Notes under the pieces: generated by a model | The model's input: only the letters and a program-made list of their open reading frames with translations | Databases searched by the model: none | What the model was told of the DNA's origin: nothing | Shown: one piece after another, positions 1-64,000 of the stretch | How the letters are laid out: each line of letters starts with the position of its first letter | Numbering within the stretch: the first letter of the stretch is position 1 | Source of the DNA: a virus | Length of the DNA: 64,000 bases | IMG/VR virus record: IMGVR_UViG_3300044994_000386 | Span: 22,436 to 86,435 of that record | Direction: 5' to 3' (one strand) | Translations under genes and position numbers: made by a program

Positions 1-2143
1 CAGTTTGATTCACTACTACTTCATCTTTAGGAACTTCTTTACCTTCCATTGTAGCCTGAGCTGGTTTTATGTTAGCTTTATCTTCAGCAATGTTAAAATA
101 TTTTGTTAATAATTTTCTTCTAGCGGCATCATAATCCTTCAAAGCGTCATCATCTAACATATCATTAATAAAATTAAATAGTACTTGACCTGCACCTGGA
201 TTACCATTTATAGATAAGTTAGGATTGGCGAATATTTTACGAAGAGAGGGATTTTGTAAAATTGTCATAACTCCCTTCTTCCATTTATCAAGAACAACCT
301 TTATTGCAAATGGGCCATTCGGGGCTCTATCTGGTTGCCAATCTCCGGTGCCTTTACCTAAGTATTTATATTCTCTCCAAGTTTTCTGTGAAACTCGACC
401 ATTTGGACGACCGGACGGTATTTGTGGTGTGACAAAAATATTATAAGCGTCTCCAAAAATATCGACTATCTTTATTATCGGATCTACATTTTGAGTAGTA
501 TCGATGTTTATCTTTATATTCTTGAATTTAGAATTCATGCTATATTTTTCTTCTTTTGAAGCAATCCAGATTGACTCATCTTCTTTGGAAAAATTTTTTC
601 TATATACTTCAAAAACAGGATTTTTATCTCCTTTTTTATCACTATCTGATTCATTTATTCTCATGAATTCTTTATATGATGATAAGAATTTTTCTTTCTT
701 TGGTTTTTCTTCAGAAATTCTTGGTAATGTTTCTTGCATTGAGTCGAAAGAATCTATGATAGATTGGATGTCTTCGCTTAGACCTTCCATCATTTTTATT
801 AATTCCGGTGAATTTTTGAAACCTAAAATGGGTTTACAAAACAAAGAAATGGATTTGGCCACATCACTAAATTTAACGGCTTCAACAACCAATTCACTTG
901 ATTCAAGTGGTTTACCATTAGTTTTAAGATTATTTATTAATTGTTTACCAATATAGATTATTTTTGAATTTACAGTACCTTCTGTTGGCCAAATTATGCC
1001 CGCCCATTCAATGCCGGTTTTTTGTTCTGTTTTTGAACCGTCAATCATATCTTGAATCATTTTTACATAATTAGAAATATTAGATGATTTATAATATTTT
1101 ACTAAATTATTATAAGCGATCTTCGCTTTTGTATCTTCAATTGACTCAAATATAAATTTTTCGTTTTTATTAAATATTTTTGTTTTTTTAACATCACCTG
1201 TACCGCTTGAAGAGCTATCAATTGAAAGATTTTTGATGTCAACTTCCATAGTCGGATTATTTGGCAACGATTTACCAGAATCGTCTAACAATTCCACAAA
1301 TACACTATTTGGATTACCAAGCTTTCCTTTCTTAACATCATCTTTTGTAATAAATTGTTTATCATTACCAATACCGACTTGATTGGTAAATGAAATTAAT
1401 TTTGCTTTTTTCTTTTCTCCATTTTTATTTGTGTATGTGTAAATACCACCAATCTTAAATTTATTCTTTTCTGGTGTGGTCTCTTTTTGTTCGGTTGGTT
1501 TATTAAGATTTTTGTTTAATAAATTATGTAATGAAATAACGGACTTAAAAATTTGAACCACTGAAGTCTTGAATTTTTCTTTTGGTTCATCAACTTCTAA
1601 GTCTTCATTTTCTATATCTTCATCATCATCTTCTCTTTCAATTTCAACATTTCCACTTTCTCTAAGTTCTTCTAAGTCTTTTCTAAATTGTTCAATTTGG
1701 TTTTTTAATGCTTCTTTTTCTGGGAACTCATTTATTTCATCTAATTCATTAACTAATTGATCAATTAAGCCACCATTTTTCAGAAACAAATCAAGTGGCT
1801 CAGGCTTCATAGCGGCCTTTTTAATATTCTCAAATAAAGCATAAATAATCGCTTTTCGAAATATTTCTTTTTCTTTATTTAAATAATCTACTTCTAAAGA
1901 CTCGAGTTGATATTTTAGCTTTTTTAATAATGGATTTATTCTAAGTATTTTAGTACCAATAATGACTTTGCGAATAGTTGAATTTATTAATCTACCTAAC
2001 AAAGAACCACCCCAAGTTATATCATTTTCTAAGACTTCTTTAACTAATGCGGAAGACTCTAAGTCTTGTGATTTATAGTTGTAGAATTCTTTGTATTTTA
2101 TAAAATCTGTTAAAAATTCTTTTCTATTTTTTAAATACTTCAT
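1..2143 (-). CDS. Large probable virion-associated protein; partial, runs off the window start and is missing from the ORF track
   Basis: ATG at 2143 reads MKYLKNRKEFLTDFIKYKEF...ENDITWGGSLLGRLINS. The + strand ORFs here look like antisense shadows. TAATATATA motif at 2167-2175 (-). Openness of the whole frame not checked codon by codon. Confidence 0.7.
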   Translation of the reverse strand, partial: MKYLKNRKEFLTDFIKYKEFYNYKSQDLESSALVKEVLENDITWGGSLLGRLINSTIRKVIIGTKILRINPLLKKLKYQLESLEVDYLNKEKEIFRKAIIYALFENIKKAAMKPEPLDLFLKNGGLIDQLVNELDEINEFPEKEALKNQIEQFRKDLEELRESGNVEIEREDDDEDIENEDLEVDEPKEKFKTSVVQIFKSVISLHNLLNKNLNKPTEQKETTPEKNKFKIGGIYTYTNKNGEKKKAKLISFTNQVGIGNDKQFITKDDVKKGKLGNPNSVFVELLDDSGKSLPNNPTMEVDIKNLSIDSSSSGTGDVKKTKIFNKNEKFIFESIEDTKAKIAYNNLVKYYKSSNISNYVKMIQDMIDGSKTEQKTGIEWAGIIWPTEGTVNSKIIYIGKQLINNLKTNGKPLESSELVVEAVKFSDVAKSISLFCKPILGFKNSPELIKMMEGLSEDIQSIIDSFDSMQETLPRISEEKPKKEKFLSSYKEFMRINESDSDKKGDKNPVFEVYRKNFSKEDESIWIASKEEKYSMNSKFKNIKINIDTTQNVDPIIKIVDIFGDAYNIFVTPQIPSGRPNGRVSQKTWREYKYLGKGTGDWQPDRAPNGPFAIKVVLDKWKKGVMTILQNPSLRKIFANPNLSINGNPGAGQVLFNFINDMLDDDALKDYDAARRKLLTKYFNIAEDKANIKPAQATMEGKEVPKDEVVVNQT

Positions 2144-2211
2144 ATATTCGCAATATTTATTTTAGTTATATATTAATTTTTATACTTCAAAAAAAAAATC
2201 ATTTAATTTAG

Positions 2212-2242
2212 TTTGGTAAATTCAAAAAACTCCTTATATTTG
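2212..2242 (+). promoter_or_regulatory. Bacteroidota-type primary sigma promoter (-33 TTTG, -7 TAnnTTTG)
   Basis: TTTG at 2212-2215, 19-nt spacer, TATATTTG at 2235-2242, just upstream of ATG 2247. Confidence 0.7.
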
Positions 2243-2246
2243 TTAT

Positions 2247-2651
2247 ATGATGTACGACATATTAAAGAATCTAATTTTAATCGATTTATCTAACATTAAA
2301 CCAGAGAATATCGAAAAACTTTTGATTGATAACGGTCTTAATGATGAGTTGTGTCATGAGAAATTAGCTAAAATGAAAGATAAAGGTGTCGATAAGTTGT
2401 ACTTAGACTCAAAAACTTTTGAAACTGTAGCTGCTGTATATAGTGATAATCCTCTTAGAGTCATGTGGGAAATAACTTTTTTGGTTGAAGTTCTCGATAT
2501 GAAGCCCATCAAATTTAAAAGTCAAAAATTAAAGCCTAATAATGCCGGCTTTAATAAACTTGATATTGATGCTATCTTAGATAAGATTAATGAAAATGGC
2601 ATCGATTCTTTAACTGAAGAAGAAAAAAGATATTTGAAAAATAATAACTAA
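2247..2651 (+). CDS. Hypothetical protein with DUF6576-like C-terminal motif
   Basis: C-terminus IDAILDKINENGIDSLTEEEKRYL resembles the tail of Bacteroidota rhomboid proteases. Confidence 0.6.
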   Translation: MMYDILKNLILIDLSNIKPENIEKLLIDNGLNDELCHEKLAKMKDKGVDKLYLDSKTFETVAAVYSDNPLRVMWEITFLVEVLDMKPIKFKSQKLKPNNAGFNKLDIDAILDKINENGIDSLTEEEKRYLKNNN

Positions 2652-2707
2652 ATTGGCTGACTTTGTGTTACTAAATTAAAGAAATCGGCTCCGTATAAAC
2701 TTAACTT

Positions 2708-2742
2708 AAACACCAGATCATTTTAGATTCGGTGTTTTTTTT
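2708..2742 (+). terminator. Intrinsic terminator
   Basis: AAACACC...GGTGTTT stem followed by a T run. Confidence 0.6.
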
Positions 2743-4940: not shown

Positions 4941-5546
4941 TTATTCTTTATTCTTCAAGTACTTATCAATCATTTCATTCAAACTACGAGAGTCAGTAAT
5001 TTGACCAGTTTCAATTTTATTTTCTTCTTCTTCAATTGTTTCAGTTCTTTTTGGCATCTCATTTAGACCTAAATCTTTACGTATTTCTTTATAAAACTTT
5101 TCCAATTCGGTTCTTTGTGTTGTAGCAAACTTTGTGTTTTCGCGTATTTGAGAAATCGTTTGATTCACAACTTCATGCATACGAGCTGAATTATCACCAT
5201 TATCTACTTGCCTTAATTGAGTTAAAAAATTTTTACGTGTCATTTTCTGTAAAAAAATAGTTTCAGCATAAACCATTGCATCTTCTTTCATCTTATTTCT
5301 AATATATTGATGTTGTGATACTGGAGAATCACCAAGATATAAATCAACTAAAGACTCGAGAATTTCATTGGCTTGTGACTTAGCATCTTGAATATCGTTA
5401 TCATAGTCATAGATTTGAATCTCACCTAAATCTGGTAAATCATCTTTGGTTGCTAAGTATTTAGAAACGTCTAAATCTTTGTTTTGGTTTTGAATTCTAT
5501 CAAATTCATCTTGTAGTTCGTTAATCTTTTGTTCTTTCTTGTTCAT
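4941..5546 (-). CDS. Probable terminase small subunit (gp16-like); start re-assigned to 5546
   Basis: Helical protein divergent from terL. SARMHEVVNQTI resembles the gp16-family PRxYEV motif. The longer ORF start overlaps terL. Confidence 0.5.
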   Translation of the reverse strand: MNKKEQKINELQDEFDRIQNQNKDLDVSKYLATKDDLPDLGEIQIYDYDNDIQDAKSQANEILESLVDLYLGDSPVSQHQYIRNKMKEDAMVYAETIFLQKMTRKNFLTQLRQVDNGDNSARMHEVVNQTISQIRENTKFATTQRTELEKFYKEIRKDLGLNEMPKRTETIEEEENKIETGQITDSRSLNEMIDKYLKNKE

Positions 5547-5595
5547 GATTATAAACGAGAATTTTAGATATATATTGAAAAATAATAATTCCTTT

Positions 5596-7740
5596 ATGAT
5601 AAATAAAAAACCACCTGTAATTAAAAAAATTGTTTTTACCACAGATTTAGTTGAAAAAACAACCAAAAGAATTCATGATGGTGAAAAAGTGCAAAAATTT
5701 GAAAATCCGTGGTTTGTAGGTGAAATTGGTGTAAGGAGAGCCGGTATCGCATTTAAGCTAAGTGAAAATGAGATTCAAGAGTATATTCGTTGTAAATTAG
5801 ATATTCATTACTTTGCTGAAAAATATTGTAAAGTAAAAACAGAAGATGGATCAATTCAAAATATTAAGTTAAGAGATTATCAAAAAGATATTTTAGATCT
5901 TTATACTAAGAACAGATTTTCAATTTTAATGGGTTCGCGACAGATTGGTAAAACAATTAATGCGGCAATTACAATGTTACACTTTATTACTTTTAATAAT
6001 GATAAAAACATTATGATTGTAGCAAATATCCGAGGGACTACAATTGAAATTGTGGATAAAATAAAATCGATTTATGTTAATTTACCATTTTTTTTGAAAG
6101 TAGGTATTAAAAATTGGAACCAACAATCCATTATCTGCGAAAATGGTTGTCGTATTAAGACTGCTGCTCGAAGTAAATCACCTGCGATTGGTTTTACAAT
6201 TGATTTTCTTTACCTAGATGAGTTTGCACATATTCCATCAAATATTATCGAACCTTATTACACTGCGGCTTTCCCAGTAGTTTCGGCGATTGAAAACTCT
6301 AAAATTATTATTACTTCAACCCCAAAAGGTATGAATCTTTTCTATCGATTACTTATGGATGCTGAAAGACCAGAAGGTGATCCCCAAAAGAATAACTATC
6401 GAGCAATGAGAGTTTACTGGTATCAAGTGCCGGGTCGATTTGTAACTTATTATAGATTAAATAATCATCGAATGTATGAACATGGGGTTACAAAAGAACA
6501 AATATTTGAACAAGTTAAAGAGCACTTTAGTGATTTTACAAAGGTAGAAATGAAATTCAACTCAGAACTTGTTAAATATGTAATTTATGTTTATAATAAT
6601 GATACCTGTTCGGAAGAAATGGCTAAGAAATTTGAATTTATAAATTCAAAAGGCGAATCATTGCCGATACAAAATATCGCAGAAGTAACAACTTGGAAAC
6701 AAGAAGCGATTAAAGATATCGGTGGTGAAGAAGCATTTAACCAAGAATATGGTCTTAGATTTATAAATACCACTCGTTCATTATTGAATGAAAGTATTAT
6801 TGAGTCATTAATTGAGAATAAAAAACATTATGAATATGAAAAGATTTATGAATTCGATAAAAAATTAAAATTTAGTTATTCTGACTTGAAATGGATAAAA
6901 GATGATGAAGTATTCACACCAGTGATGAGAAATTCGATCAGGGGAGTGATGTCAGTAGATATTTCTGAAGGTTTAGGTCAGGACTATTCGGTAATTAATA
7001 TATTCAAAATTGCACCAAAACCAAAAGAAGTAATCGATGTTTTTAAACATACATATACTTCACTTTCAGATTTCTTTTGTCTGCAACAGATTGGTATGTA
7101 CCGATCTAATTTTGTTTCAGTAAAACAATTGGCAGAAATTTTTTACCTACTAGTGTTTGAATATTTTAATTATGAAAATTGGAAAGTAGTACTTGAGGTT
7201 AATAACTATGGTAATGAGTTTTTAGCACATTTGCCACACGTTTTTGATGGCAATAATAATTATGGTTCTTCAATATTTTTTAGGTATAAGCATAGATTAG
7301 ATGCGGTTGAAGAAAAAATAGGACTCAAAGTCGGTGATAATAAAAATATGTTAGTAAAAGAATACCAAGAAGCTATGGAGAAGCGTAATTTTATAATTAC
7401 ACAAGAAGATAACATTCGAGAAATAACTACATTCGTAAAACACATAACTCCGTCTGGAAATGTGAGATATGCCGCAGATATTGGGAATGATGATACGGTA
7501 ATGACTTTGGTAAACTTATCATCAGTATTCAGCAAACACGCATTCAAAGAAATGGTAGAAGATTATGCTCCACAGATTGTAGATGCCACAACTTTAAATG
7601 AATGGAATCAATTCTTGAAAAATATTGAATATATAGAAGGTACTGATTATTCTTCGCTTATAAATGTAAATCGCAAACGTAAATTAATAAATCAATATAG
7701 GAAAAATTTCAGACCAGGAAATAATTGGTTAGGAATTTAA
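5596..7740 (+). CDS. terL: Terminase large subunit (T4 gp17-like); likely start 5596
   Basis: LRDYQ, SRQIGKT Walker A, LYLDEFAH Walker B, ITSTPKG, FNQEY, SVDISEGLGQDYS and DDTVM nuclease motifs. Confidence 0.95.
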   Translation: MINKKPPVIKKIVFTTDLVEKTTKRIHDGEKVQKFENPWFVGEIGVRRAGIAFKLSENEIQEYIRCKLDIHYFAEKYCKVKTEDGSIQNIKLRDYQKDILDLYTKNRFSILMGSRQIGKTINAAITMLHFITFNNDKNIMIVANIRGTTIEIVDKIKSIYVNLPFFLKVGIKNWNQQSIICENGCRIKTAARSKSPAIGFTIDFLYLDEFAHIPSNIIEPYYTAAFPVVSAIENSKIIITSTPKGMNLFYRLLMDAERPEGDPQKNNYRAMRVYWYQVPGRFVTYYRLNNHRMYEHGVTKEQIFEQVKEHFSDFTKVEMKFNSELVKYVIYVYNNDTCSEEMAKKFEFINSKGESLPIQNIAEVTTWKQEAIKDIGGEEAFNQEYGLRFINTTRSLLNESIIESLIENKKHYEYEKIYEFDKKLKFSYSDLKWIKDDEVFTPVMRNSIRGVMSVDISEGLGQDYSVINIFKIAPKPKEVIDVFKHTYTSLSDFFCLQQIGMYRSNFVSVKQLAEIFYLLVFEYFNYENWKVVLEVNNYGNEFLAHLPHVFDGNNNYGSSIFFRYKHRLDAVEEKIGLKVGDNKNMLVKEYQEAMEKRNFIITQEDNIREITTFVKHITPSGNVRYAADIGNDDTVMTLVNLSSVFSKHAFKEMVEDYAPQIVDATTLNEWNQFLKNIEYIEGTDYSSLINVNRKRKLINQYRKNFRPGNNWLGI

Positions 7741-7752: not shown

Positions 7753-8166
7753 ATGAAACATCTAAAAGATTTTGAAAAATTCAAAGAAAGACTTTTTGAT
7801 ATATTCTCAAGTAGTGAAAAAAATAGAGAAGAAATGAATGTATCAAAAAGACTTAAAGAAAATGATATTGTTCAGATATTTGAAACAGATCCTGAAACTA
7901 AAAAACAAAATGACACTACTTGTTTTTTAATTTGGAAAGGTGAAGATGGTAAACAAAATAATAAGGTTGCTAAGATATCACTTGATAAAATGAATGAATA
8001 TGGTAAACCTATTTTTAAATTAACAATATTCGAAGGTGATAAAGTCAAATCAACTAAATTTTTTCTAAGTCAAGAGTTAGCAACACATCAGTTCTTAAAC
8101 TATTGGGAGTCTCAAACTGATGAGGGTAGAAAGAAAAATAAAAGCTACAAGATTAAGAAATTTTAA
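7753..8166 (+). CDS. Hypothetical protein with MKHLKxFE-type N-terminus
   Basis: Starts MKHLKDFEKF; ATATATA motif immediately upstream. Confidence 0.65.
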   Translation: MKHLKDFEKFKERLFDIFSSSEKNREEMNVSKRLKENDIVQIFETDPETKKQNDTTCFLIWKGEDGKQNNKVAKISLDKMNEYGKPIFKLTIFEGDKVKSTKFFLSQELATHQFLNYWESQTDEGRKKNKSYKIKKF

Positions 8167-10110: not shown

Positions 10111-10776
10111 ATGAAACACATCAGAAAGTTTGAAAGTTACAGAATCTATAAAAAAAGAGAAGAAATCATAAGAGAATCTGTAATTCAAGTAAATGACACT
10201 TACAAAGTAAGAACTATGGTTGATATTCCTCAATCACTAATAAATGCTTATGTAAAGAAAGTAAAAGACAACACAGGTAAAAATCTTAGACAATTCTTTG
10301 GTGATGTTGACATCGCAGAGGAAATTGTAAAATACATCACCTTAAATGGTTTAGATGTTGATAAAATTTCAGCAAATGCTCTTATGGGCGGTTCACAAGG
10401 ACAGTCCCAAGGTCAAGGTCAAATACAGTCTCAATCAGAGACACAGTCGCAAGCTCAAACTCAAGCACAAAGTCAAGCACAAACTCAAGCACAAAGTCAG
10501 GCACAAACTCAAGCACAAAGTCAAGCTCAAACTCAAGCACAAACTCAAGCAAAAAGTCAGGCACAAAGTCAGGCACAAACACAAGCTCAGGTTCAAGTTC
10601 AAGTTGAAGCCGAAACTCAAACACAACCACAAGCTCAAGATCAAGATGAATTTGAAGAAGTTCCTCAATCTAAACCACAGACTCAAGGCCAGGCACAAGA
10701 AGAAACAGAAGAAGATGAAGAAGTAGATCAATCTCAGGAAGAGACAGAAGAAGATGAAGAAGAACTTCCTCTATAA
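10111..10776 (+). CDS. Probable virion protein with QAQ(S/T) repeat and acidic tail
   Basis: Starts MKHIRKFESY; low-complexity Q/A tract then E/D-rich end. Confidence 0.7.
   Translation: MKHIRKFESYRIYKKREEIIRESVIQVNDTYKVRTMVDIPQSLINAYVKKVKDNTGKNLRQFFGDVDIAEEIVKYITLNGLDVDKISANALMGGSQGQSQGQGQIQSQSETQSQAQTQAQSQAQTQAQSQAQTQAQSQAQTQAQTQAKSQAQSQAQTQAQVQVQVEAETQTQPQAQDQDEFEEVPQSKPQTQGQAQEETEEDEEVDQSQEETEEDEEELPL
10441..10590 (+). repeat. Degenerate 12-bp coding tandem repeat (CAAGCACAAAGT/CAAGCACAAACT)
   Basis: About 12 units visible, encoding QAQ(S/T). Confidence 0.85.
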
Positions 10777-10872: not shown

Positions 10873-10973
10873 ATTTTATGTAGGATATTTGAAACAAAAT
10901 TGCGATATTGATAATGACACAGAATTAATAGAAAAATCATAAAATTACTAAGGTTATTTTAATATATAATCTT

Positions 10974-11696
10974 GTGAAACACTTAAAGCTTTTTGAATCA
11001 TTTAAGAAATTTTATTTTGATAGTATAGATGAGATGGAAGTCGAGAATCCAATTTACCGTTGGTCTGTTTTCATTTCACCTAAGATCACGAGAATATCAG
11101 AATCAAACCAGAATGATTCAACACTCTTAATTGTTGATGTCCAGAAATCATTCAAGAAATGGTTCACTGAAAAGTATGTAAATGAATTAAAGAAATATGC
11201 TTCTCAATTTACTAATGTTTATCAAATCTGGGATAACCATGTCGATGGTAAAAATGTAGATAAAGATTATCTTTATGATCGAAATCCAAAAGTACCGGTA
11301 CACAATGATTTATATACTTTTCCGAATCAAAAAGATCTCATTGAAAAAAGATACAACTATAATGTAAATGCTGATTTTTATAGAAAAATTCTTGATAAAG
11401 AAGTTTACCAAGAAATTATTAATAGAGAAAATAGAAAAGAATTAAAAAAAGGTGATATTTTTCCGACTAAAGAAGGAACATATATTGTATATGTTGGAAA
11501 TAATCATAAGTGGCACCATCTTAGTAAGAAATTATATGATCTATTAGTTAGTTTAAAAAATAAAACGGTCACTATAGTTGGTGGATCGGACAGTGAGTGT
11601 CTAGAAGACATTTACACTGCTGCTTTATCGTTAGGTGTTAAAATAAAAAGAGATTGGAAGTTTATATATACATCCACAAGCTGTCCTATAAAATAA
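10974..11696 (+). CDS. Isochorismatase/cysteine-hydrolase-like protein
   Basis: LLIVDVQKSF, IEK, VGG..SECL; GTG start giving MKHLKLFESF. Confidence 0.6.
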   Translation: MKHLKLFESFKKFYFDSIDEMEVENPIYRWSVFISPKITRISESNQNDSTLLIVDVQKSFKKWFTEKYVNELKKYASQFTNVYQIWDNHVDGKNVDKDYLYDRNPKVPVHNDLYTFPNQKDLIEKRYNYNVNADFYRKILDKEVYQEIINRENRKELKKGDIFPTKEGTYIVYVGNNHKWHHLSKKLYDLLVSLKNKTVTIVGGSDSECLEDIYTAALSLGVKIKRDWKFIYTSTSCPIK

Positions 11697-13331: not shown

Positions 13332-14042
13332 TTATATTTCTTTTAATTGTAAAATAAAGGTATTTAGGTTTCCTAAATTTGATGAATCGGAAAAACATTC
13401 AATTTCTAAATTATGAGATTTGAAATCGATTTTTTTTAATTGTATTTTAATCAAATTTTTGATTCTAAAAAATTCTTTTTTAATCTCTTTCAATTTCTTT
13501 TTAGCATCTATCGAATCATAATGATCAAATTCTTTATATAATTGATCAATCTCATTCTTATCACAAGATAACTCTTCTTCATTAATGTGAAATTCTATTG
13601 AAAAAATGGGTTGTTTTTGCCAATTATAAAATTGATCAATTTCTAAACTATCAATAATTTTACCACCTAAAATCTCATATTCTAAAACTGGTTTTAATAA
13701 TTCTTTAATTTCTGATTTAGTGTGTTTTGCTTTCTTAGTTGTTATAGATAAATAATAAAGATCTTCAACTATCTGTAATTTTTCTTTTTTTCTGTAATCA
13801 GATTTTTCGAGTTCATTGATAAGACAATCTATGTTGAAATTGTATGGCTTTTTACCAGATCTTGACCATCCTTTATTCATGTCTAAACAACCGGTAAATA
13901 AAGAACTACACTTACCATAAAATCCACCAAATGATTCTGTAGCACCAATTGACCAAAGATAATCAGACATATCAACTATTATTTCTAGTTTTTGCCTTAA
14001 GCTCACTCCGTTCTGTGATTCAAAATATTTTAAATACTTCAT
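13332..14042 (-). CDS. Hypothetical protein
   Basis: 236 aa; starts MKYLKYFES. Confidence 0.65.
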   Translation of the reverse strand: MKYLKYFESQNGVSLRQKLEIIVDMSDYLWSIGATESFGGFYGKCSSLFTGCLDMNKGWSRSGKKPYNFNIDCLINELEKSDYRKKEKLQIVEDLYYLSITTKKAKHTKSEIKELLKPVLEYEILGGKIIDSLEIDQFYNWQKQPIFSIEFHINEEELSCDKNEIDQLYKEFDHYDSIDAKKKLKEIKKEFFRIKNLIKIQLKKIDFKSHNLEIECFSDSSNLGNLNTFILQLKEI

Positions 14043-19270: not shown

Positions 19271-19948
19271 ATGAAGCATCTAAATAAATTTAATGAAATT
19301 TGGAAACAAGAACCAGAAGAACGTTACATAATAAATAAATATTTAGATATTTTAAAGGATGGTAAAGAATTAAATCAAAATCAAAAAGATTTTATTAATA
19401 GGTATTTCGAATATCCGGATCTTTATGACATCACATCTAAATGGCTTCAAAATAAATTTGATACTTTTTCAAAATATAATATCGAAGAAATCGAAGATAG
19501 ATTGGTAGAATTCTTTGATCAAATTATTCATTGGGATCCATATTTGATGTTTTCATTATATATGAAATACTCAGGCGGTGAAAGCTGGCTTAGTATATAT
19601 CCAGAAAAATTAAATGACCCAAAATATTTACTAACCGAACTATCATATGTTTTTTCAGATTTACTATTCCACACAAAGACTAGAAAATATTCTAAACCAG
19701 AATTCACAATAGATTATTATTTAGAAAATAAAAGACCAGCCATAAGCATCCATTTCAATAGAGCCTATCAAAGTCGAGAGTCTTACAACTTGTTGTTTTT
19801 AGAAGATTTAAGTGATAAAATTGTTAATCGCCTTTCTCAGTTGTATAAAATAGTCGATGTCATGTCAGATAATAACAGACATAACAGTAGATTATATGAT
19901 CCGGAAACTGATGTAAACGATTATATTTTGACTTTAATCATTGAATAA
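19271..19948 (+). CDS. Hypothetical protein
   Basis: Starts MKHLNKFNE. Confidence 0.65.
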   Translation: MKHLNKFNEIWKQEPEERYIINKYLDILKDGKELNQNQKDFINRYFEYPDLYDITSKWLQNKFDTFSKYNIEEIEDRLVEFFDQIIHWDPYLMFSLYMKYSGGESWLSIYPEKLNDPKYLLTELSYVFSDLLFHTKTRKYSKPEFTIDYYLENKRPAISIHFNRAYQSRESYNLLFLEDLSDKIVNRLSQLYKIVDVMSDNNRHNSRLYDPETDVNDYILTLIIE

Positions 19949-24483: not shown

Positions 24484-24801
24484 ATGATAATGAAAATTAA
24501 AAGATTCCAAGAAGCACTCGATGAAAAAATTGAAATTTCTCTGGAAAGAATTGAAGAGATAATATCAGAATTGACTAATATTTCAACTAATTTAGACGCA
24601 TCAAGAGAAAGAATTGAATCATTTTCTAATGAATTATCAAACTACCAATCTAAATCAAAAAATTACAATGACCAGATCGATGATTCTGTAATTAATTTAG
24701 ATATAGTGAAATCAAATTTTGATCAAATAATTTCTTCGATTGATACGGTTGTTACTAATCTTAAAGACTATAAAGATAAAGGTCGTAACTTCTTATACTA
24801 A
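24484..24801 (+). CDS. Coiled-coil hypothetical protein
   Basis: MKIKRFQE start, heptad pattern. Confidence 0.6.
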   Translation: MIMKIKRFQEALDEKIEISLERIEEIISELTNISTNLDASRERIESFSNELSNYQSKSKNYNDQIDDSVINLDIVKSNFDQIISSIDTVVTNLKDYKDKGRNFLY

Positions 24802-42801: not shown

Positions 42802-42944
42802 ATTGATATATATTAAAATAAAATATTTTGAAAATGAATCATTATAGTAAAAAAATCAAAAAAAAACCTTGACAAATAAAATCAATATAAATAAATTTTA
42901 AATACTAATATATATATATACAATAAAAAATAAAAAAATTCTAT

Positions 42945-43121
42945 ATGAAACACATTAAATTATTTGAAGATTTTGAATACGACGAAGAAAATCAAAACAA
43001 AGAAGAAAGTTCGGAATATAGCGATTTTGATTACGAAAAGGATTATTTTGACTACGAAGAAGAATTAAAAAATGAAGAAGTTCATGAATCAAAAAAAAAA
43101 TCAAAATTTGATTTTTTTTAG
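42945..43121 (+). CDS. Small acidic protein (58 aa), below the ORF-track cutoff
   Basis: MKHIKLFEDFEYDEENQNKEESSEYSDFDYEKDYF...; TAATATATA at 42906-42914. Confidence 0.6.
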   Translation: MKHIKLFEDFEYDEENQNKEESSEYSDFDYEKDYFDYEEELKNEEVHESKKKSKFDFF

Positions 43122-44896: not shown

Positions 44897-44942
44897 AATA
44901 ATTATATTAAAGATTTATATATAGTTTATTAATATATAATAA

Positions 44943-45596
44943 ATGAAATTTATAAAAAAATACGAAAATTTTAATTCAGAGCCTTTACACATATTCGATT
45001 TTGATAATACTTTAGTAGACACGCCATCTTTCGAGGAATTAGTATATAAAATGATTAAAGAAGACGTTAATGTTAAAACTTTACTGAATAGGTCTATCAA
45101 AATTTTAGGCGTTTCTATTAATGATCTGAAATGGGAAAACGGTCGAATTTATGTAAGTGATCCTGAAAATAAACTAACACCAACTAAAAATTGGATCAGA
45201 AAAGGAAAACGTTTATACCTTACACCACCAGATAAATTCTATTATTTGGATGAATCTTTACCAACTGGACTTTTAAATTTATCTGAAAAATACAAAGAAG
45301 TTAAAAATAAAGCAATTTTGACCGGTAGAACAATTGACATGAAAGATAAGATTTTAGAAACTTTGAAAAGATTAGGATTGGAAGAACCAAATTTTGGTCT
45401 TTTTTGTTATCCAAACCGTTCACAAACTTCTGATAAAGTTGCTGTCTGGAAAGGCAAAACTATTATTAAATTGATACAAGAAACAGGTTTTAAAGAAGTT
45501 TATTTCTATGAAGATAAGATTAAGTGGTTAAAAACAACCACCAAAATGGTTAAAGAAAAGTTACCGGAAGTCAAATTCAAACCAATAAAAGTTTAG
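44943..45596 (+). CDS. HAD phosphatase-like protein
   Basis: FDFDNTLVDTP, LTGR, WK, FYED; starts MKFIKKYENF. Confidence 0.7.
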   Translation: MKFIKKYENFNSEPLHIFDFDNTLVDTPSFEELVYKMIKEDVNVKTLLNRSIKILGVSINDLKWENGRIYVSDPENKLTPTKNWIRKGKRLYLTPPDKFYYLDESLPTGLLNLSEKYKEVKNKAILTGRTIDMKDKILETLKRLGLEEPNFGLFCYPNRSQTSDKVAVWKGKTIIKLIQETGFKEVYFYEDKIKWLKTTTKMVKEKLPEVKFKPIKV

Positions 45597-47666: not shown

Positions 47667-49697
47667 TTAATCCAAATAATTATTGTTTATTAAGTCTCTA
47701 AATTTTTTTTGATTGGTTAAAAAAATATAAAAAATATCCATCCAAAAAACACCTTTATAATTATTCCAAATACATTTATATTTGATCAGATCGAAAACAA
47801 CTTTGACAAAGTCTAAAATTAAAGTAAGAATAGTTGATGAATCGTATTTTTCTGATTTGAAAGTTTTAATAATTTCGTTTGAAATTTGATTTTTAATATC
47901 TTGATCAATCTCACTCGAATTTTGCCAGAAACCTAAATGCCACCTTCTTGGATCTTCCAGTAATTCTCGTGATATACTTTCTAAAGAAACTAAAAAATCG
48001 GGATTTGAAGATTCCAAATCTTTAAATGAATTGATTCTATTTTGATAGACAGTTTCGAATATGGATTTAAAATTTTCATCGAAAGCATCAGCCCATAAAG
48101 ACATAAACTGATGTATACCAAATTTATAGATTGTGTTTCTTGCATTAAAAATAGTACCTCTTTTATCTAAAATCTCATCGGTGGCTGTTAGTTGATCATC
48201 TTTTATACTTCTAATATCATAGTCTTTATCTTCAATCATTTTTTCTATTTTTTTGTAAAGTAAATAATTATAATATTCTTTTATAAAGATTACATATAAC
48301 ATCTTTTTAGGATTTTTTAGATCTAACTTAATATTGAAAAGTTTTTGATCCACTTCAACTGCTAAGTATTTTTCTTTATCATCTAAGATATTGTAAATCT
48401 TTCTATATTTTTCAACAGATTCTGGTTCAACTTGATATACGGTCCATATATTTTTCTTGATTCCTATATTACCATCATCGTCTTCTTCAGTTAGATCTAT
48501 TAAAAAGCTTTTGCCTGAAATATCATCATAAAATATATCTTCATCATCATCTGGATAATAGTCATAATTTTTTTCTTCTTGATCTAAGTAAACTTTAACG
48601 GCAACATTCTCATCATAATAATCGTTATATTTTTTTGAGTAAACTGCGGTATCATACCAAATATAAGAGTTATGATAATTGGAGTATAAAGCATTATTTA
48701 TATGTATATAAGAATTAAGATAATCGGACCAAATTACTTGATCAGATGGATAACTTTCATCTTCGTATTCACAATAAACTATATCCATTAAAACGCCTTC
48801 ACCATTTATGTTTCTTAACTCAAGTGTATTCTTTTTGTTTTTTATTTCGTAGTCACCAGTATATAAAGTTTTATCTAACGTATCATAATAAATGAAGCTA
48901 TCCATATAAGGATAATAATCATAAGTACCATCAGCATTAGATTTACCAGTTAATTTAACTTTCATATCATTATTATTTTTAGAAATCTTAAAATTATCAT
49001 TAACCCATTTTTCAATCAAGTTAGTATCGGAATCTAATGTGAAATAAATCCTATCTAAATATAAACCATAATTTGTTTTCCAAAGTAAAGCTCTGCCACG
49101 TAATTTATTATCATTATCTATATAAATCACCAAGCTACATTCTTCAGGATTATTTACATAGATATCTAAAAATTTTTGACAATTCGGATATCTCATACAA
49201 GATTTTCCCAAAGAGCCTTTTCCCGAAAGTGTTTCTTGACAATAGTTATCTTGTAGATACCAAAATCTGATGTCTTCACCTTTAACAACTCTAATCGATT
49301 CAACTTTTGAAGTCTTGATTTTATTAGCGTCATAGGCTGATTTAAACTTATTCACAAATTTTTCAATCTCATAGTCAGTATATTCGATTTGATTATCGGT
49401 TAGAATCGATCTAACTATTCTACCAATTGTAGTTTGATTTGACTTTTCACTAAAAAGATCATTCGGATTTAGACCAGACTTTAACTTATTTGTTATTTGA
49501 GAATCAGGTATGAAAGATAATTTATCATGTTTGCGTGTTAAATCAATGAAGTTATATTTAGTCTTTATATCTTTATTAATTAATTGACTAAATTTTTTAG
49601 CAATTGGATCATCAATTGATTTAATTAAATTCAAAAAATAATCAGAAGTCAATAAAATAGATTCTAATATAAATTCATAGTAGCTTTTAAGTTTCAT
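47667..49697 (-). CDS. SCM/RALxW/DRIY family protein
   Basis: GSLGKSCMR, GRALLW, LDRIY, YPYMDS. Confidence 0.75.
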   Translation of the reverse strand: MKLKSYYEFILESILLTSDYFLNLIKSIDDPIAKKFSQLINKDIKTKYNFIDLTRKHDKLSFIPDSQITNKLKSGLNPNDLFSEKSNQTTIGRIVRSILTDNQIEYTDYEIEKFVNKFKSAYDANKIKTSKVESIRVVKGEDIRFWYLQDNYCQETLSGKGSLGKSCMRYPNCQKFLDIYVNNPEECSLVIYIDNDNKLRGRALLWKTNYGLYLDRIYFTLDSDTNLIEKWVNDNFKISKNNNDMKVKLTGKSNADGTYDYYPYMDSFIYYDTLDKTLYTGDYEIKNKKNTLELRNINGEGVLMDIVYCEYEDESYPSDQVIWSDYLNSYIHINNALYSNYHNSYIWYDTAVYSKKYNDYYDENVAVKVYLDQEEKNYDYYPDDDEDIFYDDISGKSFLIDLTEEDDDGNIGIKKNIWTVYQVEPESVEKYRKIYNILDDKEKYLAVEVDQKLFNIKLDLKNPKKMLYVIFIKEYYNYLLYKKIEKMIEDKDYDIRSIKDDQLTATDEILDKRGTIFNARNTIYKFGIHQFMSLWADAFDENFKSIFETVYQNRINSFKDLESSNPDFLVSLESISRELLEDPRRWHLGFWQNSSEIDQDIKNQISNEIIKTFKSEKYDSSTILTLILDFVKVVFDLIKYKCIWNNYKGVFWMDIFYIFLTNQKKFRDLINNNYLD

Positions 49698-49758: not shown

Positions 49759-50505
49759 ATGGTACAAAAATTTTTTGAGTATGTCGTAGGAAAATTTGAA
49801 CCGATTAAATCTTTCTATTTGAAAGATGAATTGAATCCAAAAGTTTGGCCTTATGGTGATGAGAAAATAAATCAATCAATTAAAGAAGACCTACTTGAAA
49901 TCTCAAAAGACTATTTCGAAAATTTAGAAATAAAAGCCAAACTAAAAGATATAGTTTTGACTGGTTCATTAGCTAATTTCAATTGGTCAGAATATTCAGA
50001 CTTTGATGTACATTTAATTTTTGATTTCGGTGAAGTCAATAAAGATGAAGAATTAGTAAGGAAGTATCTTGATGCGGTTGAAAAGGTTTGGAAACTTCAA
50101 CATGACATCACAATTGAAGGATATCAAGTTGAAATTTATTGTCAAGATTCAAAACAAGATCACTTCTCAACTGGTCAATATTCATTATTAAAAGATAAAT
50201 GGCTTGTTAAGCCAACTAGAGAAAATTTTGTTCCAGATGAAGATCTAATTAAACGTAAGGCTGGGCAAATCATGTCAATTATTGAAGATTTAGAGAACGA
50301 CTTAAAGGAAAATAAAAGTTATGAATTAATCAGTTCTAAACTTAAAAAAGTTTGGAAAAAGATTAAAGATAGTCGTAAAGCCGGACTCGAAAGAGAAGGT
50401 GAATACTCTGTTGAGAATTTAGTATTTAAACTTCTTAGAAGAAATGGTTATATAGGGAAAATCCTAGATTTAAAAAGAAAAGCATATGATAAAAAATTTA
50501 AATAA
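49759..50505 (+). CDS. Pol-beta-fold nucleotidyltransferase
   Basis: LTGSLANFNWSEYSDFDVH, VEIY, GEYSVENLVFK.LRR. Confidence 0.8.
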   Translation: MVQKFFEYVVGKFEPIKSFYLKDELNPKVWPYGDEKINQSIKEDLLEISKDYFENLEIKAKLKDIVLTGSLANFNWSEYSDFDVHLIFDFGEVNKDEELVRKYLDAVEKVWKLQHDITIEGYQVEIYCQDSKQDHFSTGQYSLLKDKWLVKPTRENFVPDEDLIKRKAGQIMSIIEDLENDLKENKSYELISSKLKKVWKKIKDSRKAGLEREGEYSVENLVFKLLRRNGYIGKILDLKRKAYDKKFK

Positions 50506-52313: not shown

Positions 52314-53891
52314 ATGATAACCAAATACAGTGAATTTTTATTGGAACAATTTATAACAATGATTAATGAATCAGAGGTGATATTTTCAGATAAGTTTAGA
52401 AAATTACTTAAAGCAATCGAATCACCAATTGCCAAGGCACTTATAAATATTGAGAATAAAGATTTAAAAATAACTGCTAACTATTTAGATGTTTCAGATA
52501 ATAAAGATTCAATTTCTTTCATACCAGATAGAAAAGCTCAAGAGATATTAAAAGATAAACCAGAAAAGTTTGCAACATTTAATGGTACCGGTGGTATTTT
52601 AACACATAACATGAAAGAAAACGGGACCATATTCAATTTATTAGGATATGAACCAAAAGGCGACAAAGGTTATAAACCACAAGTCGGTGAAAGGGGATTA
52701 GTTGTTTCAAGAGCCGTTTCGCCTTTATCAGGAAATGTTTATCTTTATATGAAGTTTGATAATGGTGAATGTGTATTAAAGGAAGATAGAGTAAACTATG
52801 AAGATTATCTAAAAGATCTTTGGACTAAAAATAGACAAAATGTGAGAACAGGTAGAGCAATTCAAGCATTATTGAATGCTGCTGGTTATACATATAAATC
52901 ATCTGAAATTGAAGAATTTGTTAATAAATATAAATCGGCTTTTGAAAAAATGAACGATGCTTTCTCAAATTTTGAATTAGTTGAAGGTGATAAAATTGGT
53001 TACTGGTATAATTCTAAAAATTACGCTGATAATAAAGGTACACTTTCAAATTCTTGTATGTCAAATGTTCCAAATAACTTCTTTGATATTTATATGTCAA
53101 ATCCTGATGTATGTAAACTATTGATTTTAAAAGACGAGTCTGGTAATAAAATTAAAGGCAGGGCTTTAGTTTGGAAACTTCAATTTCCAGAAGGAGTTAC
53201 TTTTCTTGATCGTATATATACACATAATGATTCAGATGTTGAGTTATTCCGTGAGTATGCTAAATCTCAAGGGTGGTATTATAAATTTAGAAATGATAGT
53301 TCAAATTCTTCTGAAATGATTTCACCATCAGGTGAAAAAGTAGATATGGGACCATTAGTAGTGAAAATTAGAAAAGGTGAATATAATAAATATCCATATG
53401 TGGATACGGTCAAATATTTTAATTCAAGTGCAGGCACACTATCAACTAGTTCTAAAGGATATGTAATCTGTCTTGAAGATACCAATGGAGGTGGAGAAGA
53501 GTGTGACTATTGCGGAGGTTCAGGTGAAGTAGAATGTTATGACTGTGAAGGTAGTGGTGTACAAAGATGTGAAGAGTGTGATGGAACAGGTAACATTAAT
53601 TGTGAAGAATGTTACGGTAATAGAGAATTAGATTGTCCAAATTGTGATGGTTTAGGTGAAATTGATTGTGAATATTGTGATGGTTTAGGTGAAAACGATG
53701 ATGGTGAAGAATGTTCAGTTTGTGAAGGTAAAGGTAAAGTTGACTGCAGTTATTGTGACGCTGAAGGTAAAAGAGAGTGTCCGGAATGTGACGGTAGAGG
53801 TACCGTTGATTGTAATGAATGTGACGGTAGAGGTGAATACTCTTGTAGTAACTGTGATGGTGAAGGTATCGTGCCTTGTCCGGAATGTTAA
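52314..53891 (+). CDS. SCM/RALxW/DRIY family protein with DnaJ-type CxxCxGxG repeats
   Basis: GTLSNSCMS, GRALVW, LDRIY, YPYVDT; 12 CxxC units at the C-terminus. Confidence 0.8.
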   Translation: MITKYSEFLLEQFITMINESEVIFSDKFRKLLKAIESPIAKALINIENKDLKITANYLDVSDNKDSISFIPDRKAQEILKDKPEKFATFNGTGGILTHNMKENGTIFNLLGYEPKGDKGYKPQVGERGLVVSRAVSPLSGNVYLYMKFDNGECVLKEDRVNYEDYLKDLWTKNRQNVRTGRAIQALLNAAGYTYKSSEIEEFVNKYKSAFEKMNDAFSNFELVEGDKIGYWYNSKNYADNKGTLSNSCMSNVPNNFFDIYMSNPDVCKLLILKDESGNKIKGRALVWKLQFPEGVTFLDRIYTHNDSDVELFREYAKSQGWYYKFRNDSSNSSEMISPSGEKVDMGPLVVKIRKGEYNKYPYVDTVKYFNSSAGTLSTSSKGYVICLEDTNGGGEECDYCGGSGEVECYDCEGSGVQRCEECDGTGNINCEECYGNRELDCPNCDGLGEIDCEYCDGLGENDDGEECSVCEGKGKVDCSYCDAEGKRECPECDGRGTVDCNECDGRGEYSCSNCDGEGIVPCPEC

Positions 53892-56564: not shown

Positions 56565-57164
56565 TTAAAATGGTTCGATATCTTTTTTGTAACCCCTTTT
56601 GTTTGCCTCATAGTAAAAATAAATAGTAAATACAGGCTCGCGTTTAGTATTTTCCCACATTTCAATCTCTGGGTCATACTGAATTAAAATATCATCGTTG
56701 ATTTTCTTTAATATATTAGTCATTTTCATTATTGACTTCATCTTTTCATTTTTTTTAAAATTGAATTGAATACTGATATCATAACCGTCGTTAATAACGT
56801 AAAAGTCATTAATACCGGCATTTTTAATCATCTTTCTAATTAGATAAGTTAATTCTTTGACTACATCTTCTTGGTCTTTAGAAAGTTCAACTTTATTTCT
56901 ATTATTGGTGTTATATGAATGTTTATTGTCTGAGTATGAATCATATTCTTCAAAATCAGAGTATTCAAATTCATTGGAGTCATAATTTAATTTCTTATAA
57001 CCCGGATCAGATTTGAGATCTGATTTTGCTGCAAGTTTTGCCCTTGGATCATTAATATCATCATCTAACCAAGACAGATCTTTATTTCTTTTACTTGACT
57101 CATGGATATAATCAAATCCAAATCTATTTTCTTTTATTAATCGATTGAATTTTTTAAGTTTCAT
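56565..57164 (-). CDS. Hypothetical protein
   Basis: Starts MKLKKFNRLIKEN. Confidence 0.65.
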   Translation of the reverse strand: MKLKKFNRLIKENRFGFDYIHESSKRNKDLSWLDDDINDPRAKLAAKSDLKSDPGYKKLNYDSNEFEYSDFEEYDSYSDNKHSYNTNNRNKVELSKDQEDVVKELTYLIRKMIKNAGINDFYVINDGYDISIQFNFKKNEKMKSIMKMTNILKKINDDILIQYDPEIEMWENTKREPVFTIYFYYEANKRGYKKDIEPF

Positions 57165-58807: not shown

Positions 58808-59197
58808 TTATTTTTTAGTCACGATTATTTGATTTGAATTTTTATATTCTACCTCAACTTGACCTGGATTCATTCCCGGCCTTTTGTGTACAAATTTTCT
58901 TTTACAATAAACAACGGTTACTTTAGATCCAGAATTACCTTTTGAATTATCAGCAGCAATTTGAGCCGCTTTTTTAATTACTTCCAGTGTTGGTAATTTA
59001 TCAGATACCTTTATTACCACATGGCTACCAGGTACACCTTTAGCGTGCATCCAAATATCGTCTTCACTGGCTAATTCCAATGTCAAGAAATCATTTGCTG
59101 CTGCATTTTTACCTTGAAAAACAATAAAATCATCAATTAGGTGTCTTTTGACACCATTGCCTTTTGCTTCAAAATATTTATACTTTAATATTTCCAT
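58808..59197 (-). CDS. Stand-alone NFACT-R (DUF814) RNA-binding protein
   Basis: GKNAAANDFLT, DIWMHAKGVPGSHVVI, AAQIAA..S, V.Y...K.V.K..G..PG.V. Confidence 0.88.
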   Translation of the reverse strand: MEILKYKYFEAKGNGVKRHLIDDFIVFQGKNAAANDFLTLELASEDDIWMHAKGVPGSHVVIKVSDKLPTLEVIKKAAQIAADNSKGNSGSKVTVVYCKRKFVHKRPGMNPGQVEVEYKNSNQIIVTKK

Positions 59198-59553
59198 TAT
59201 TTTATTACTTTATTTAGATAAGCCAATCCATGATAAATATCTATGACTCTAACTTTAATTACAGCTTGTGTAGCAGGTGAGCTAAAACTGTTTCCCTTTT
59301 TCTTAACTAAGGCAGTAATATAAATTGTATCACCACGTTTGACTTCCCTATTACTTAAATCTGGACTAAATCCAATTTGATTTGCCTCATAAAATGGTAA
59401 ATCTTTGTGATCCATAAAAACATCTATAATAGATTCAATTTCAAATTTATCCGAAGATTTAGACTTAACAATACCATCTTCTAATTCCAATATTTCTGGA
59501 TCTTTGATGTCATTTGATAATTCTTGAAATTTTTTTATTTTACGAGTTTTCAT
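59197..59553 (-). CDS. Hypothetical protein
   Basis: Starts MKTRKIKKFQE; TAATATATA (-) at 59562-59570. Confidence 0.65.
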   Translation of the reverse strand: MKTRKIKKFQELSNDIKDPEILELEDGIVKSKSSDKFEIESIIDVFMDHKDLPFYEANQIGFSPDLSNREVKRGDTIYITALVKKKGNSFSSPATQAVIKVRVIDIYHGLAYLNKVIK

Positions 59554-62474: not shown

Positions 62475-62497
62475 AACGTAAATTTTATATATAGTTT

Positions 62498-63076
62498 ATG
62501 TTTAATTTATCAGATCCAAAAATAGGATATTTAATTATATCTGCACAAAATGAGAATACCTCTGCCTTGGATATTAAATTTCAATCCAATAAGTTGGCTA
62601 ATATTCTTTATGCTAAAGATTATACTCTAATTCCTGTTACTGGTTATTATAATCAAAAATATGAAAATTCATATATTGCTATCACTTCTGATGATAATGA
62701 TAATGATAAGCTAAGATCAGATGCAATCTATCTAATGGATGAGTTTAACCAATCATCTGTAATAGTTAAATATATCAACGAAACAGGTGCTAAGAAAATT
62801 CTTTCTGATGGATCCGAAGTACCATTGGGGATTGTAATTTATAATTCTGATATGAAAAATAAGACATATATCTACAATGGTGTTTCATTTTCGTTTATTG
62901 AGCAAAAGAGATATTATTTCCCTAAAGATAAAAAAGATCTTAAATCTGGAATGATCGTAGAATACTTTAATAATAATAAATGGACGGAACGACAAATAGT
63001 AAACGTCGATGATGAATACGATAAGATGTATCGATTATTAATAAAATATAAGAAGTTAAGAATTTGTCAATCATAA
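62498..63076 (+). CDS. Hypothetical protein
   Basis: YLIISA, G.Y....E.SY, FNQ.SV pattern recalled from other T4-like phage proteins. Confidence 0.65.
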   Translation: MFNLSDPKIGYLIISAQNENTSALDIKFQSNKLANILYAKDYTLIPVTGYYNQKYENSYIAITSDDNDNDKLRSDAIYLMDEFNQSSVIVKYINETGAKKILSDGSEVPLGIVIYNSDMKNKTYIYNGVSFSFIEQKRYYFPKDKKDLKSGMIVEYFNNNKWTERQIVNVDDEYDKMYRLLIKYKKLRICQS

Positions 63077-63112
63077 AACAATAAAAGTATCAAAAAAAAA
63101 ATAAATATAATT

Positions 63113-63727
63113 ATGATAAAAATTAAAAACTTTGCAAAGCAAGAATTGGATATTCTTGCTGCAACAACACCGGATGCTATTATTATACCATTTGCAAAAG
63201 AAATACTTGAATTGTGTGAATCATTTGGTAAATCAGGTCAAAGTGGTGCTTCGGCGCCTTACGTTGCCTATGCTATTTCTGAGACAGTAAGGAAACTAAT
63301 GCTATTTGAGCCTATTTCAGATATTACAGGTGATGAAAATGAATGGCACGGTATATCTGAAACAGATAATGGCTCAATAATTTTTCAAAACATTAGATGT
63401 GGTGCTTTATTTAAAGATGGAGTGGATTCAAAACCATACTATCTACATGCTATTGTTTGGAAAGGCGTTGAAGATGAGGATACGTTTACTGGAAGCGTTT
63501 ATTATGATGATATAAATTTTGAATTGATAAGTAGCAAACAATTAGTTAAATTTCCTTTTAAACCAAAGACATTTTATATTGATGTGGTTCGTGTGCCAAT
63601 TACAAAAGAAGAAGCCGAAATTAGAAATTTATACTACACCGAAAGTATTTCTGGAGAATGTTATTATACTATTTTAAAAGATCCAAAACAACTTGATGAA
63701 GTTTTTAAATATTATGAAAAAATCTAG
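63113..63727 (+). CDS. Hypothetical phage protein
   Basis: F..SGQSG.SA, PI..ITG...EW, QN.RC..LFK. Confidence 0.7.
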   Translation: MIKIKNFAKQELDILAATTPDAIIIPFAKEILELCESFGKSGQSGASAPYVAYAISETVRKLMLFEPISDITGDENEWHGISETDNGSIIFQNIRCGALFKDGVDSKPYYLHAIVWKGVEDEDTFTGSVYYDDINFELISSKQLVKFPFKPKTFYIDVVRVPITKEEAEIRNLYYTESISGECYYTILKDPKQLDEVFKYYEKI

Positions 63728-63775
63728 ATATTAAAAAAATAAAAATAATTTCCGGGATGTTTAATATATACCCTA

Positions 63776-64000
63776 ATGAAATACCTACTAGAATCCTCCA
63801 TATTTAATCAAATTGACCAAATTTGCAAGGAATTTGGTATAAAAAACTATACTCTAAATTGGGATGGGTCTATTGATGTGAATGGTGATGTGGATTTATC
63901 CTATCAAGGTCTATCAGAATTACCCCTTAAGTTCGGTATAGTCAGTGGTGATTTTTATTGCAATCATAATCAATTAACTTCCCTCTGGGGAGCTCCGAAG
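63776..64000 (+). CDS. LRR-like repeat protein, partial
   Basis: MKYLLES...IDVNGDVDLSYQGLSELPLKFGIVSGDFYCNHNQLTSLWGAPK; TAATATATA at 63762-63770. Confidence 0.75.
   Translation, partial: MKYLLESSIFNQIDQICKEFGIKNYTLNWDGSIDVNGDVDLSYQGLSELPLKFGIVSGDFYCNHNQLTSLWGAPK

Follow-up and report, generated by a model that had tools for sequence, protein, structure and literature searches.

The 64,000-nucleotide stretch of DNA analyzed here (the window, to which positions refer unless another sequence is named) corresponds to bases 22436-86435 of the 86,435-bp virus contig IMGVR_UViG_3300044994_000386, whose sequence marks it as a fragment of a very large, uncultivated, T4-related phage of the Mahaphage type. 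About 20 of the ~70 window genes encode proteins that begin with a variant of the same short peptide, as do 40-50 of the 472 proteins of a relative, G003 (385 kb, 95% complete). This shared N-terminus is probably a capsid-targeting, scaffold-docking tag of the T4 type, greatly expanded in huge Bacteroidota-type phages. Confidence is higher for the four window tags that keep the T4 form and lower for the commonest local form, named class A. The capsid-targeting reading stems from homology and motif logic only, from which we infer docking, cleavage, packaging and injection.

The shared peptide is confined to gene starts

The 18 N-termini quoted in an earlier note on this DNA, which had described the peptide as capsid-targeting-like, all sit at the gene starts indicated there, the coordinate given for minus-strand genes being the start. 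Defined strictly as MK.[LIVF][KRNQS].[FY][ENQ].[FY], the motif occurs seven times with an ATG and once with a GTG when the entire 86-kb contig is translated in six frames, always at a gene start and never in a wrong frame. Without its initial M, it occupies residue 2 in 8 of the 80 non-redundant contig proteins for 0.007 expected (p about 1e-22), with two internal matches among the 23,456 positions of the contig proteins. G003 yields 13 of 472 proteins for 0.004 expected. A 30-nt degenerate DNA form matches the contig at five places and each of five related huge phages at 8-18; Tenacibaculum phage PTm1 (31% GC), Chryseobacterium phage MA9V-2, T4 and LR756501 are free of it, and the reversed pattern is absent from every genome scanned. 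Over 1.36 Mb of related loci, 80 of the 81 start-codon matches head an open reading frame (ORF) of at least 40 amino acids. AT-rich codon bias, raised by the earlier note as a possible objection, and composition in general are therefore excluded by the excess of the motif, its N-terminal position and the absence of matches in the controls. PTm1, being devoid of tags, is usable only as an AT-rich negative control and not as a proteomics proxy.

Synonymous codons at the conserved positions of 88 distinct tags follow genome-wide use: the GAA fraction is 0.77 against 0.76 genome-wide, leucine is written with five of its six codons, and serine with both TCN and AGY. Selection thus acts on the peptide and not on the DNA.

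Class A tags behave as a portable module

A position weight matrix and the strict regular expression separate ten class A genes, MK[HY][LI]Kx[FY]Ex[FY], eight of which are within the window. The whole census of the window comprises these eight strict or near-strict class A tags, four T4-type tags and about nine looser cases. The class A genes are as follows.

7753..8166, plus strand: 137 amino acids, MKHLKDFEKF (strict motif; no Pfam match for the body)
10111..10776, plus strand: 221 amino acids, MKHIRKFESY (class A scoring, orthologues)
10974..11696, plus strand: 240 amino acids, GTG start, MKHLKLFESF (class A scoring)
13332..14042, minus strand, start at 14042: 236 amino acids, MKYLKYFES (class A scoring)
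19271..19948, plus strand: 225 amino acids, MKHLNKFNE (class A scoring)
28013..28270, plus strand: 85 amino acids, proline-rich and basic, MKPIKKFEEF (strict motif; G003 orthologue MKYVKKFESFVSE)
42945..43121, plus strand: 58 amino acids, very acidic, MKHIKLFEDF (strict motif)
44943..45596, plus strand: HAD-like, 217 amino acids, MKFIKKYENF followed by five residues and IFDFDNTL (HAD motif, homologues)

No similarity beyond residue 11 is detected among the eight strict and two near-strict class A proteins of the contig. Within the HAD-like family, a tag variant is present in 90 of 94 homologues; a linker of variable length follows it, and then a well conserved IFDFDDTL body. An untagged HAD paralogue (PF10307) is encoded at 8448-9002. 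When the 10974 protein is aligned with its G003 orthologue (MRYLKTFESYS), its residue 47 faces residue 11 of the latter: 36 amino acids have been inserted between the tag and the conserved body, and the tag still stands at the extreme N-terminus. Since class A proteins share nothing past residue 11, since linkers vary and since the tag survives an insertion, it qualifies as a portable module. An IxE at residues 20-22 is conserved throughout the 10111 family, whose member downstream of the large terminase (TerL) gene keeps MKHIR.FE.YR in the relatives where it is found. To note, the 10111-10776 protein also contains about 100 residues of short Q/A/T/S-rich repeats, and its strongly acidic tail recalls that of the T4 prohead core protein gp67.

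Two further arrangements involve tags. In G003, about 12 small paralogous genes (100-295 amino acids) form a tandem array (G003:C1:310047-317325, minus strand), all tagged with a two-residue insertion form, MK[HY]LKTYK[IL]FES; the array is reminiscent of the variable loci for internal proteins in T-even phages. In the window, an internal copy of the tag, RKFIKKFENF (at residue 190), is encoded at 51806-51835 (plus strand) inside a 357-amino-acid ORF (51239-52312); neither a start codon nor a promoter box precedes it. Only residues 15-84 of this ORF are matched by its G003 orthologue, and the internal copy may be the trace of an ancient event that joined a tagged gene to a gene upstream of it.

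T4-type tags and their relation to the T4 sequence

In phage T4, the capsid-targeting sequence (CTS) MKTYQEFIAE heads the internal proteins IPII and IPIII (genes ipII and ipIII) and is removed by the gp21 prohead protease. The corresponding N-terminal motif, tested as [FY]xx[FY][LIV]xE beginning within the first 12 residues, is enriched in both genomes: the form [FY]xx[FY][LI]xE occurs near the N-terminus six times in the contig for 0.21 expected (28-fold; one is a DnaB false positive) and 20 times in G003 for 1.9 expected (11-fold, p 2e-14). Four window genes carry it cleanly.

28281..29765, plus strand: 494 amino acids, MKSFQKFLEE followed by VTIKGNP, a core protein in this clade (homologues)
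41794..42801, minus strand: 335 amino acids, GTG start, MLIYNFEEFILE, Cys-rich paralogue family (motif, orthologue)
47667..49697, minus strand: 676 amino acids, MKLKSYYEFILE, same Cys-rich paralogue family (motif, orthologue)
52314..53891, plus strand: 525 amino acids, MITKYSEFLLE, paralogue family, DnaJ/BSD2-like Cys-rich domain (motif, domain search)

The 494-residue protein has 1199 homologues, and nearly all of the 120 matches listed begin with MK.F.KFLEE. In its AlphaFold2 model the tag forms a low-confidence helix (residues 4-11; predicted local distance difference test below 50 for residues 1-16), about 20 residues lacking regular structure follow, and the first helix of the body starts at residue 32. 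A fold search with this model found nothing in the PDB, its one match being a viral, uncharacterised protein, and a search for homologues in cultured phages matched only two uncultured Mahaphages. The three other proteins are paralogues of one another and of a looser, 1008-residue case listed below, so these four are not unrelated, and the EF[IL]LE start is common to three of them by descent. The earlier claim that unrelated proteins share the N-terminus thus stands for the strict and near-strict class A proteins, whose bodies differ, and falls for these four.

The comparison with the T4 CTS drawn in the earlier note holds, and on stronger grounds than its author could have: the T4-type head genes of the clade, the enrichment of the motif and the tags of phage MA9V-2 described below all attest to it. 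In both cases a peptide of ~10 residues lies at the extreme N-terminus of otherwise unrelated proteins; the four genes above match M-K-x-aromatic-x-x-F-[IL]-x-E; and the lineage possesses a T4-type portal, capsid protein, S77 protease and terminase. When the aromatic pairs are aligned, class A L4-K5-x-F7-x-x-F10 falls in the T4 register M1-K2-x-Y4-x-x-F7. Class A keeps the hydrophobic-K-x-aromatic-x-x-aromatic core behind three extra leading residues (MK[HY]), usually without [LIV]-x-E. Bridging tags (e.g., MKYIKLFENFLNE, MKHITKFDQFINE and MKKLKTYETFINE) link the two forms, and MKYIKLFENFLNE and MKHITKFDQFINE carry both parts. The core is best explained as a short amphipathic helix. The earlier proposal of a cleavage after Glu suits the T4-type tags, which end in [LI]xE, and fits a subset only, as [LIV]xE stands at residues 11-13 in just 9 of 90 tight class A tags.

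The differences are also clear. T4 has a handful of CTS proteins (3-5), compared to about 20 in this window; the commonest local form has three additional N-terminal residues and usually no cleavage site; and the protease of the clade forms one protein with a scaffold whose CTS-like tandem repeats have no counterpart in T4 gp22.

The cultured phage MA9V-2 (218 kb, Bacteroidota host) possesses a related TerL, a T4-type head module and an S77 fusion. Its tag, MK[NT]FxxF[IV]NE, heads a 99-residue gene product encoded beside denV and a 199-residue one encoded 1.5 kb further, placed like T4 ipII (100 amino acids) and ipIII (193 amino acids) beside denV. A third copy heads an 82-residue protein, whose gene lies between those for the portal and the protease, where T4 has genes 67 and 68. 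The tagged genes of MA9V-2 number only about five, and none of them is of class A, unlike in the phage studied here. In T4 itself, gp61.1 (NC_000866 18966-19130), a 54-residue hypothetical protein whose gene adjoins the primase gene, starts with MKTFKEFIKE, a near-copy of the CTS, which calls for caution in equating the motif with packaging.

Giant phages of the phiKZ type (SPN3US, phiKZ, 201phi2-1) package about 50 head proteins, several with N-terminal propeptides that are cut after Glu by an S77-type protease and are thought to direct these proteins into the prohead (PMC5694885). These propeptides are mostly 80-160 residues long with only an A/S-x-E site in common, in contrast to the shared tag of 10-13 residues found here. 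A literature search found no paper linking huge phages to a capsid-targeting tag.

Looser tags and false positives

About nine looser window cases rest on tagged orthologues.

2..2143, minus strand: 893-residue product of the head gene of the sheath operon, MKYLKNRKEFL (G003 MKYLKGRDNYLNE; start at 2143, 3' end beyond the left edge of the window)
24490..24801, plus strand: 103 amino acids, coiled-coil, MKIKRFQEALDE (motif, orthologue)
25866..26909, plus strand: 347 amino acids, HExxH, MNYLKNFYMFEE (an alternative gene call starts at Met9)
29774..31525, plus strand: 583 amino acids, ankyrin repeats, MLIIKYNDFLD..RLNE (Ank_2 4e-12; G003 MKLHKYNQFLGE)
38747..41773, minus strand: 1008 amino acids, MKVLKFREY, paralogue-family domain from ~residue 284 (G003 MEIIKFKKYS)
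49759..50505, plus strand: 248 amino acids, nucleotidyltransferase-like, MVQKFFEY (PF01909, E 1e-3, which misses the cut-off; G003 MKLVKYLEFNQ)
56565..57164, minus strand: 199 amino acids, MKLKKFNRLIKE, ending in IxE (motif, orthologue)
58808..59197, minus strand: 129 amino acids, NFACT-R, MEILKYKYFE (PF05670 6e-14; G003 MKHISNFKLYLE)
59197..59553, minus strand: 118 amino acids, MKTRKIKKFQEL (start comparison; no G003 orthologue found)

Tag status agrees in 15 of 15 tagged orthologue pairs between the contig and G003 (30-80% identity), about 40 untagged pairs are concordant as well, and the wording of the tag drifts within the pattern between orthologues. The cargo labels of the earlier note fare unevenly. 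Ankyrin and NFACT-R are backed by Pfam, while cysteine hydrolase and HAD have no Pfam match below E 0.01; HAD depends on its motif and the source name, and zincin on HExxH alone, the 25866 protein giving weak leads only in the Protein Atlas (LPD23 and SprT-like).

The loose pattern also matches DnaB, ClpP and Tad3, all three rejected as tagged. The Glu of the DnaB-like protein (37284-38624) is not conserved in its orthologue. The start of ClpP (26999-27721, minus strand; full-length, PF00574, 5e-52) is the conserved N-terminus of its family, a 40-residue extension; one to three ClpP copies occur in relatives and none in G003. As for Tad3, the Pfam match begins at residue 4, so that the MIKIKNF start lies within the domain.

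63113-63727, plus strand: Tad3 family (Type I Thoeris inhibitor), 204 amino acids (PF25185, E 4e-21), likely an anti-defence gene

These false matches, together with the four paralogues, the LRR array members, which are paralogues too, and the 12-gene G003 array tagged throughout, could be taken to mean that the shared start serves no common function and reflects composition bias and descent. For the strict set this is largely refuted, and overall it is barely credible: the strict and near-strict proteins are dissimilar past residue 11, the motif excess is of the order given above, AT-rich control phages and reversed patterns give no match, and tags sit on different folds (HAD, ankyrin, NFACT-R).

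Head genes and scaffold repeats of related phages

This contig, about 15% complete according to CheckV, does not carry the head module. The clade possesses a T4-type TerL, a portal, a Gp23-type capsid protein and an S77 prohead protease, and T4-type prohead core genes are present in G002, G003, G005, LR756502 and LR756504. In G003, the portal (PF07230, 9e-56) and the Gp23-type capsid protein (PF07068, 3e-28; BLASTP against T4 gp23, 1e-8) are accompanied by the following gene.

G003:C1:32744-34882, minus strand: S77 protease-scaffold fusion, 712 amino acids, S77 domain at residues 24-138

The remainder of this protein looks like a scaffold. It harbors 33 [LI]xE sites in 712 residues, the highest density among the 472 proteins (p 5e-10), and most of them fall in about eleven tandem 14-residue repeats, YSEY[IL]AENLDKNI. 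Over the relatives, the fusion is roughly 700 residues long and has 11-12 such repeats. The YSEY[IL]AE part is near the core of the T4 CTS MKTYQEFIAE, and each unit ends in [IL]xE. The same repeats are found in G002, G005, LR756502, LR756504 and LR756501; PTm1 carries a different one, W[IL]K..FTKELSEG[IV]E. On the T4 side, gp22 has 16 [LI]xE sites in 270 residues, and the 65-residue propeptide of gp23 ends with FGSFLTE. Comparison of the T4 CTS, the gp23 site and the scaffold repeat of the clade shows [FY]xx[FY][LI]xE to be common to all three. LR756501 combines the repeats with about 40 in-frame T4-type tags and no class A, and covariation of the tag form with the scaffold repeat is not clear-cut.

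Over 59 residues, one window protein (53901-54602, minus strand, 233 amino acids) matches the C-terminal region of the Gp23-type capsid protein of G003 at 39% identity. It begins with MEKLIQKLYE, in which an LxE ends at residue 10, as in T4 gp24 (MAKINELLRE).

The upstream box and expression

Many starts have a TAATATATA box 4-6 nt or some 20 nt upstream. The TTAATATATA box, for example at 10955-10973, 25847-25865, 44925-44942 and 42802-42820 (minus strand), ends 4-6 nt before starts, including two GTG starts, with no visible Shine-Dalgarno sequence, which suggests that the mRNAs may be leaderless or nearly so. The TATATA-type promoter reported earlier stands before tagged genes and untagged ones alike, among the latter the helicase, DnaB, SbcD-like and fibre-like genes and the sheath operon. 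Because untagged genes have it too, the box neither marks nor dates the tagged set, and TAATATATA was rejected as a timing marker, since it stands ahead of untagged replication and structural genes.

The peptide might also be a by-product of an expression feature, be it a 5' coding element that aids translation of mRNAs with a short leader or none and without a Shine-Dalgarno sequence, or a cassette of promoter and start spread by recombination. The TAATATATA-like box 4-6 nt before many starts without a Shine-Dalgarno sequence, the A/T-rich codons and the identical 30-nt start of T4 ipII and ipIII would fit such a feature. It is nevertheless very improbable, given that synonymous codon use is that of the whole genome, that His/Tyr at position 3 and the aromatic spacing survive two-residue insertions (e.g., MKHLKTYKLFES), that the same box precedes untagged genes, and that PTm1, AT-rich and infecting a Bacteroidota host, has no tags.

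A proposed docking mechanism and its rivals

In this mechanism, the tag would dock its protein on the scaffold core, predicted from relatives to be the C-terminal portion of the fused protease and scaffold, which bears the YSEY[IL]AE repeats. A Gp23-type shell would close round this core, and the S77 protease would then cut after Glu at [LI]xE, destroying the scaffold and trimming those tags that have such a site. The cargo would be retained in the head and enter the host with the DNA. In a more specific version, which we hold tentatively and with some doubt, the tag copies one unit of the scaffold repeat and loads about a tenth of the proteome for co-injection, class A being a distinct, uncleaved variant. 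The cargo would then number dozens of binding proteins and enzymes: the HAD-like, nucleotidyltransferase-like, NFACT-R, ankyrin and Cys-rich paralogue proteins, and many without known relatives.

Several observations weigh against capsid targeting. Among the tagged phages only MA9V-2 is cultured, and its paper reports no virion proteomics. As the head module is off the contig, the evidence on protease and scaffold all comes from relatives (42-65% TerL identity). The scarcity of [LIV]xE in class A leaves cleavage of the commonest form unexplained. T4 gp22 is devoid of a CTS-like repeat, so a tag that mimics a scaffold repeat has no T4 precedent, and LR756501 has scaffold repeats but no class A. 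The CTS-like start of the hypothetical gp61.1, a very large cargo set (10-15% of genes) and a promoter box that offers no sign of late timing add to this list.

Some of these points would suit a real peptide signal with another destination or partner, at least for class A. Membrane-binding helices, docking to a chaperone or modifying enzyme, a Clp-type degradation signal and sorting to a phage-made compartment are the candidates; taken together they remain unlikely. Besides the usual lack of [LIV]xE in class A and the gp61.1 start, this alternative draws on the position of tagged genes among replication genes with the same promoter box and on the contig ClpP, which adjoins three tagged genes. 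ClpP was rejected as the partner of the tag and a ClpP-linked degradation signal is unlikely, because G003, 95% complete and with dozens of tags, has no ClpP, and the tag-like ClpP start is a family feature. The tag has a conserved Glu at position 8 and often at 13, which is unusual in membrane-binding helices. Secretion is disfavored by the absence of a hydrophobic core of at least ten residues in these amphipathic, Glu-containing tags, and the true signal-like starts (9139, 9555) are untagged. Furthermore, class A and the T4-type tag are connected by the bridging forms, and apart from the head module no candidate partner gene turned up with the tags.

Origin of the DNA and neighbouring genes

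The contig (29.5% GC) is placed in the Mahaphage group by its terminase.

5539..7740, plus strand: TerL, T4-gp17 type, untagged context gene (sequence match)

This protein is 64% identical to those of the Mahaphage genomes LR745206 (634 kb) and LR756502 (642 kb), and 59-75% identical to those of 80 IMG/VR contigs with sizes up to 476 kb. Bacteroidetes are the predicted hosts of the largest Mahaphage genomes (PMC7162821). The contig DNA is present in hot-spring and microbial-mat metagenomes. Three other genes were annotated.

16907-18013, minus strand: glutamine synthetase-like protein (sequence match)
18718-19221, minus strand: TnsA-like endonuclease (PF08722, 6e-15)
31558-33102, minus strand: Ro60/TROVE protein (PF05731, 1e-19)

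A genome scan with the glutamine synthetase found its nearest cellular relatives outside Bacteroidota and gave neither a clue to the host nor a bacterial control.

Implications for huge phages

The CTS-like repeats of the protease-scaffold fusion suggest a possible docking mode for the tags. If the capsid-targeting reading is true, the T4 CTS principle would extend from 3-5 proteins to dozens, and class A would offer a second, possibly uncleaved, packaging tag for engineered phage capsids. If the peptide is a capsid address, a simple sequence rule would list the proteins carried in by uncultivated phages of 400-700 kb: the effectors that these huge phages inject could be predicted from the tag alone, and a large first-strike toolkit otherwise invisible in metagenomes would become readable.

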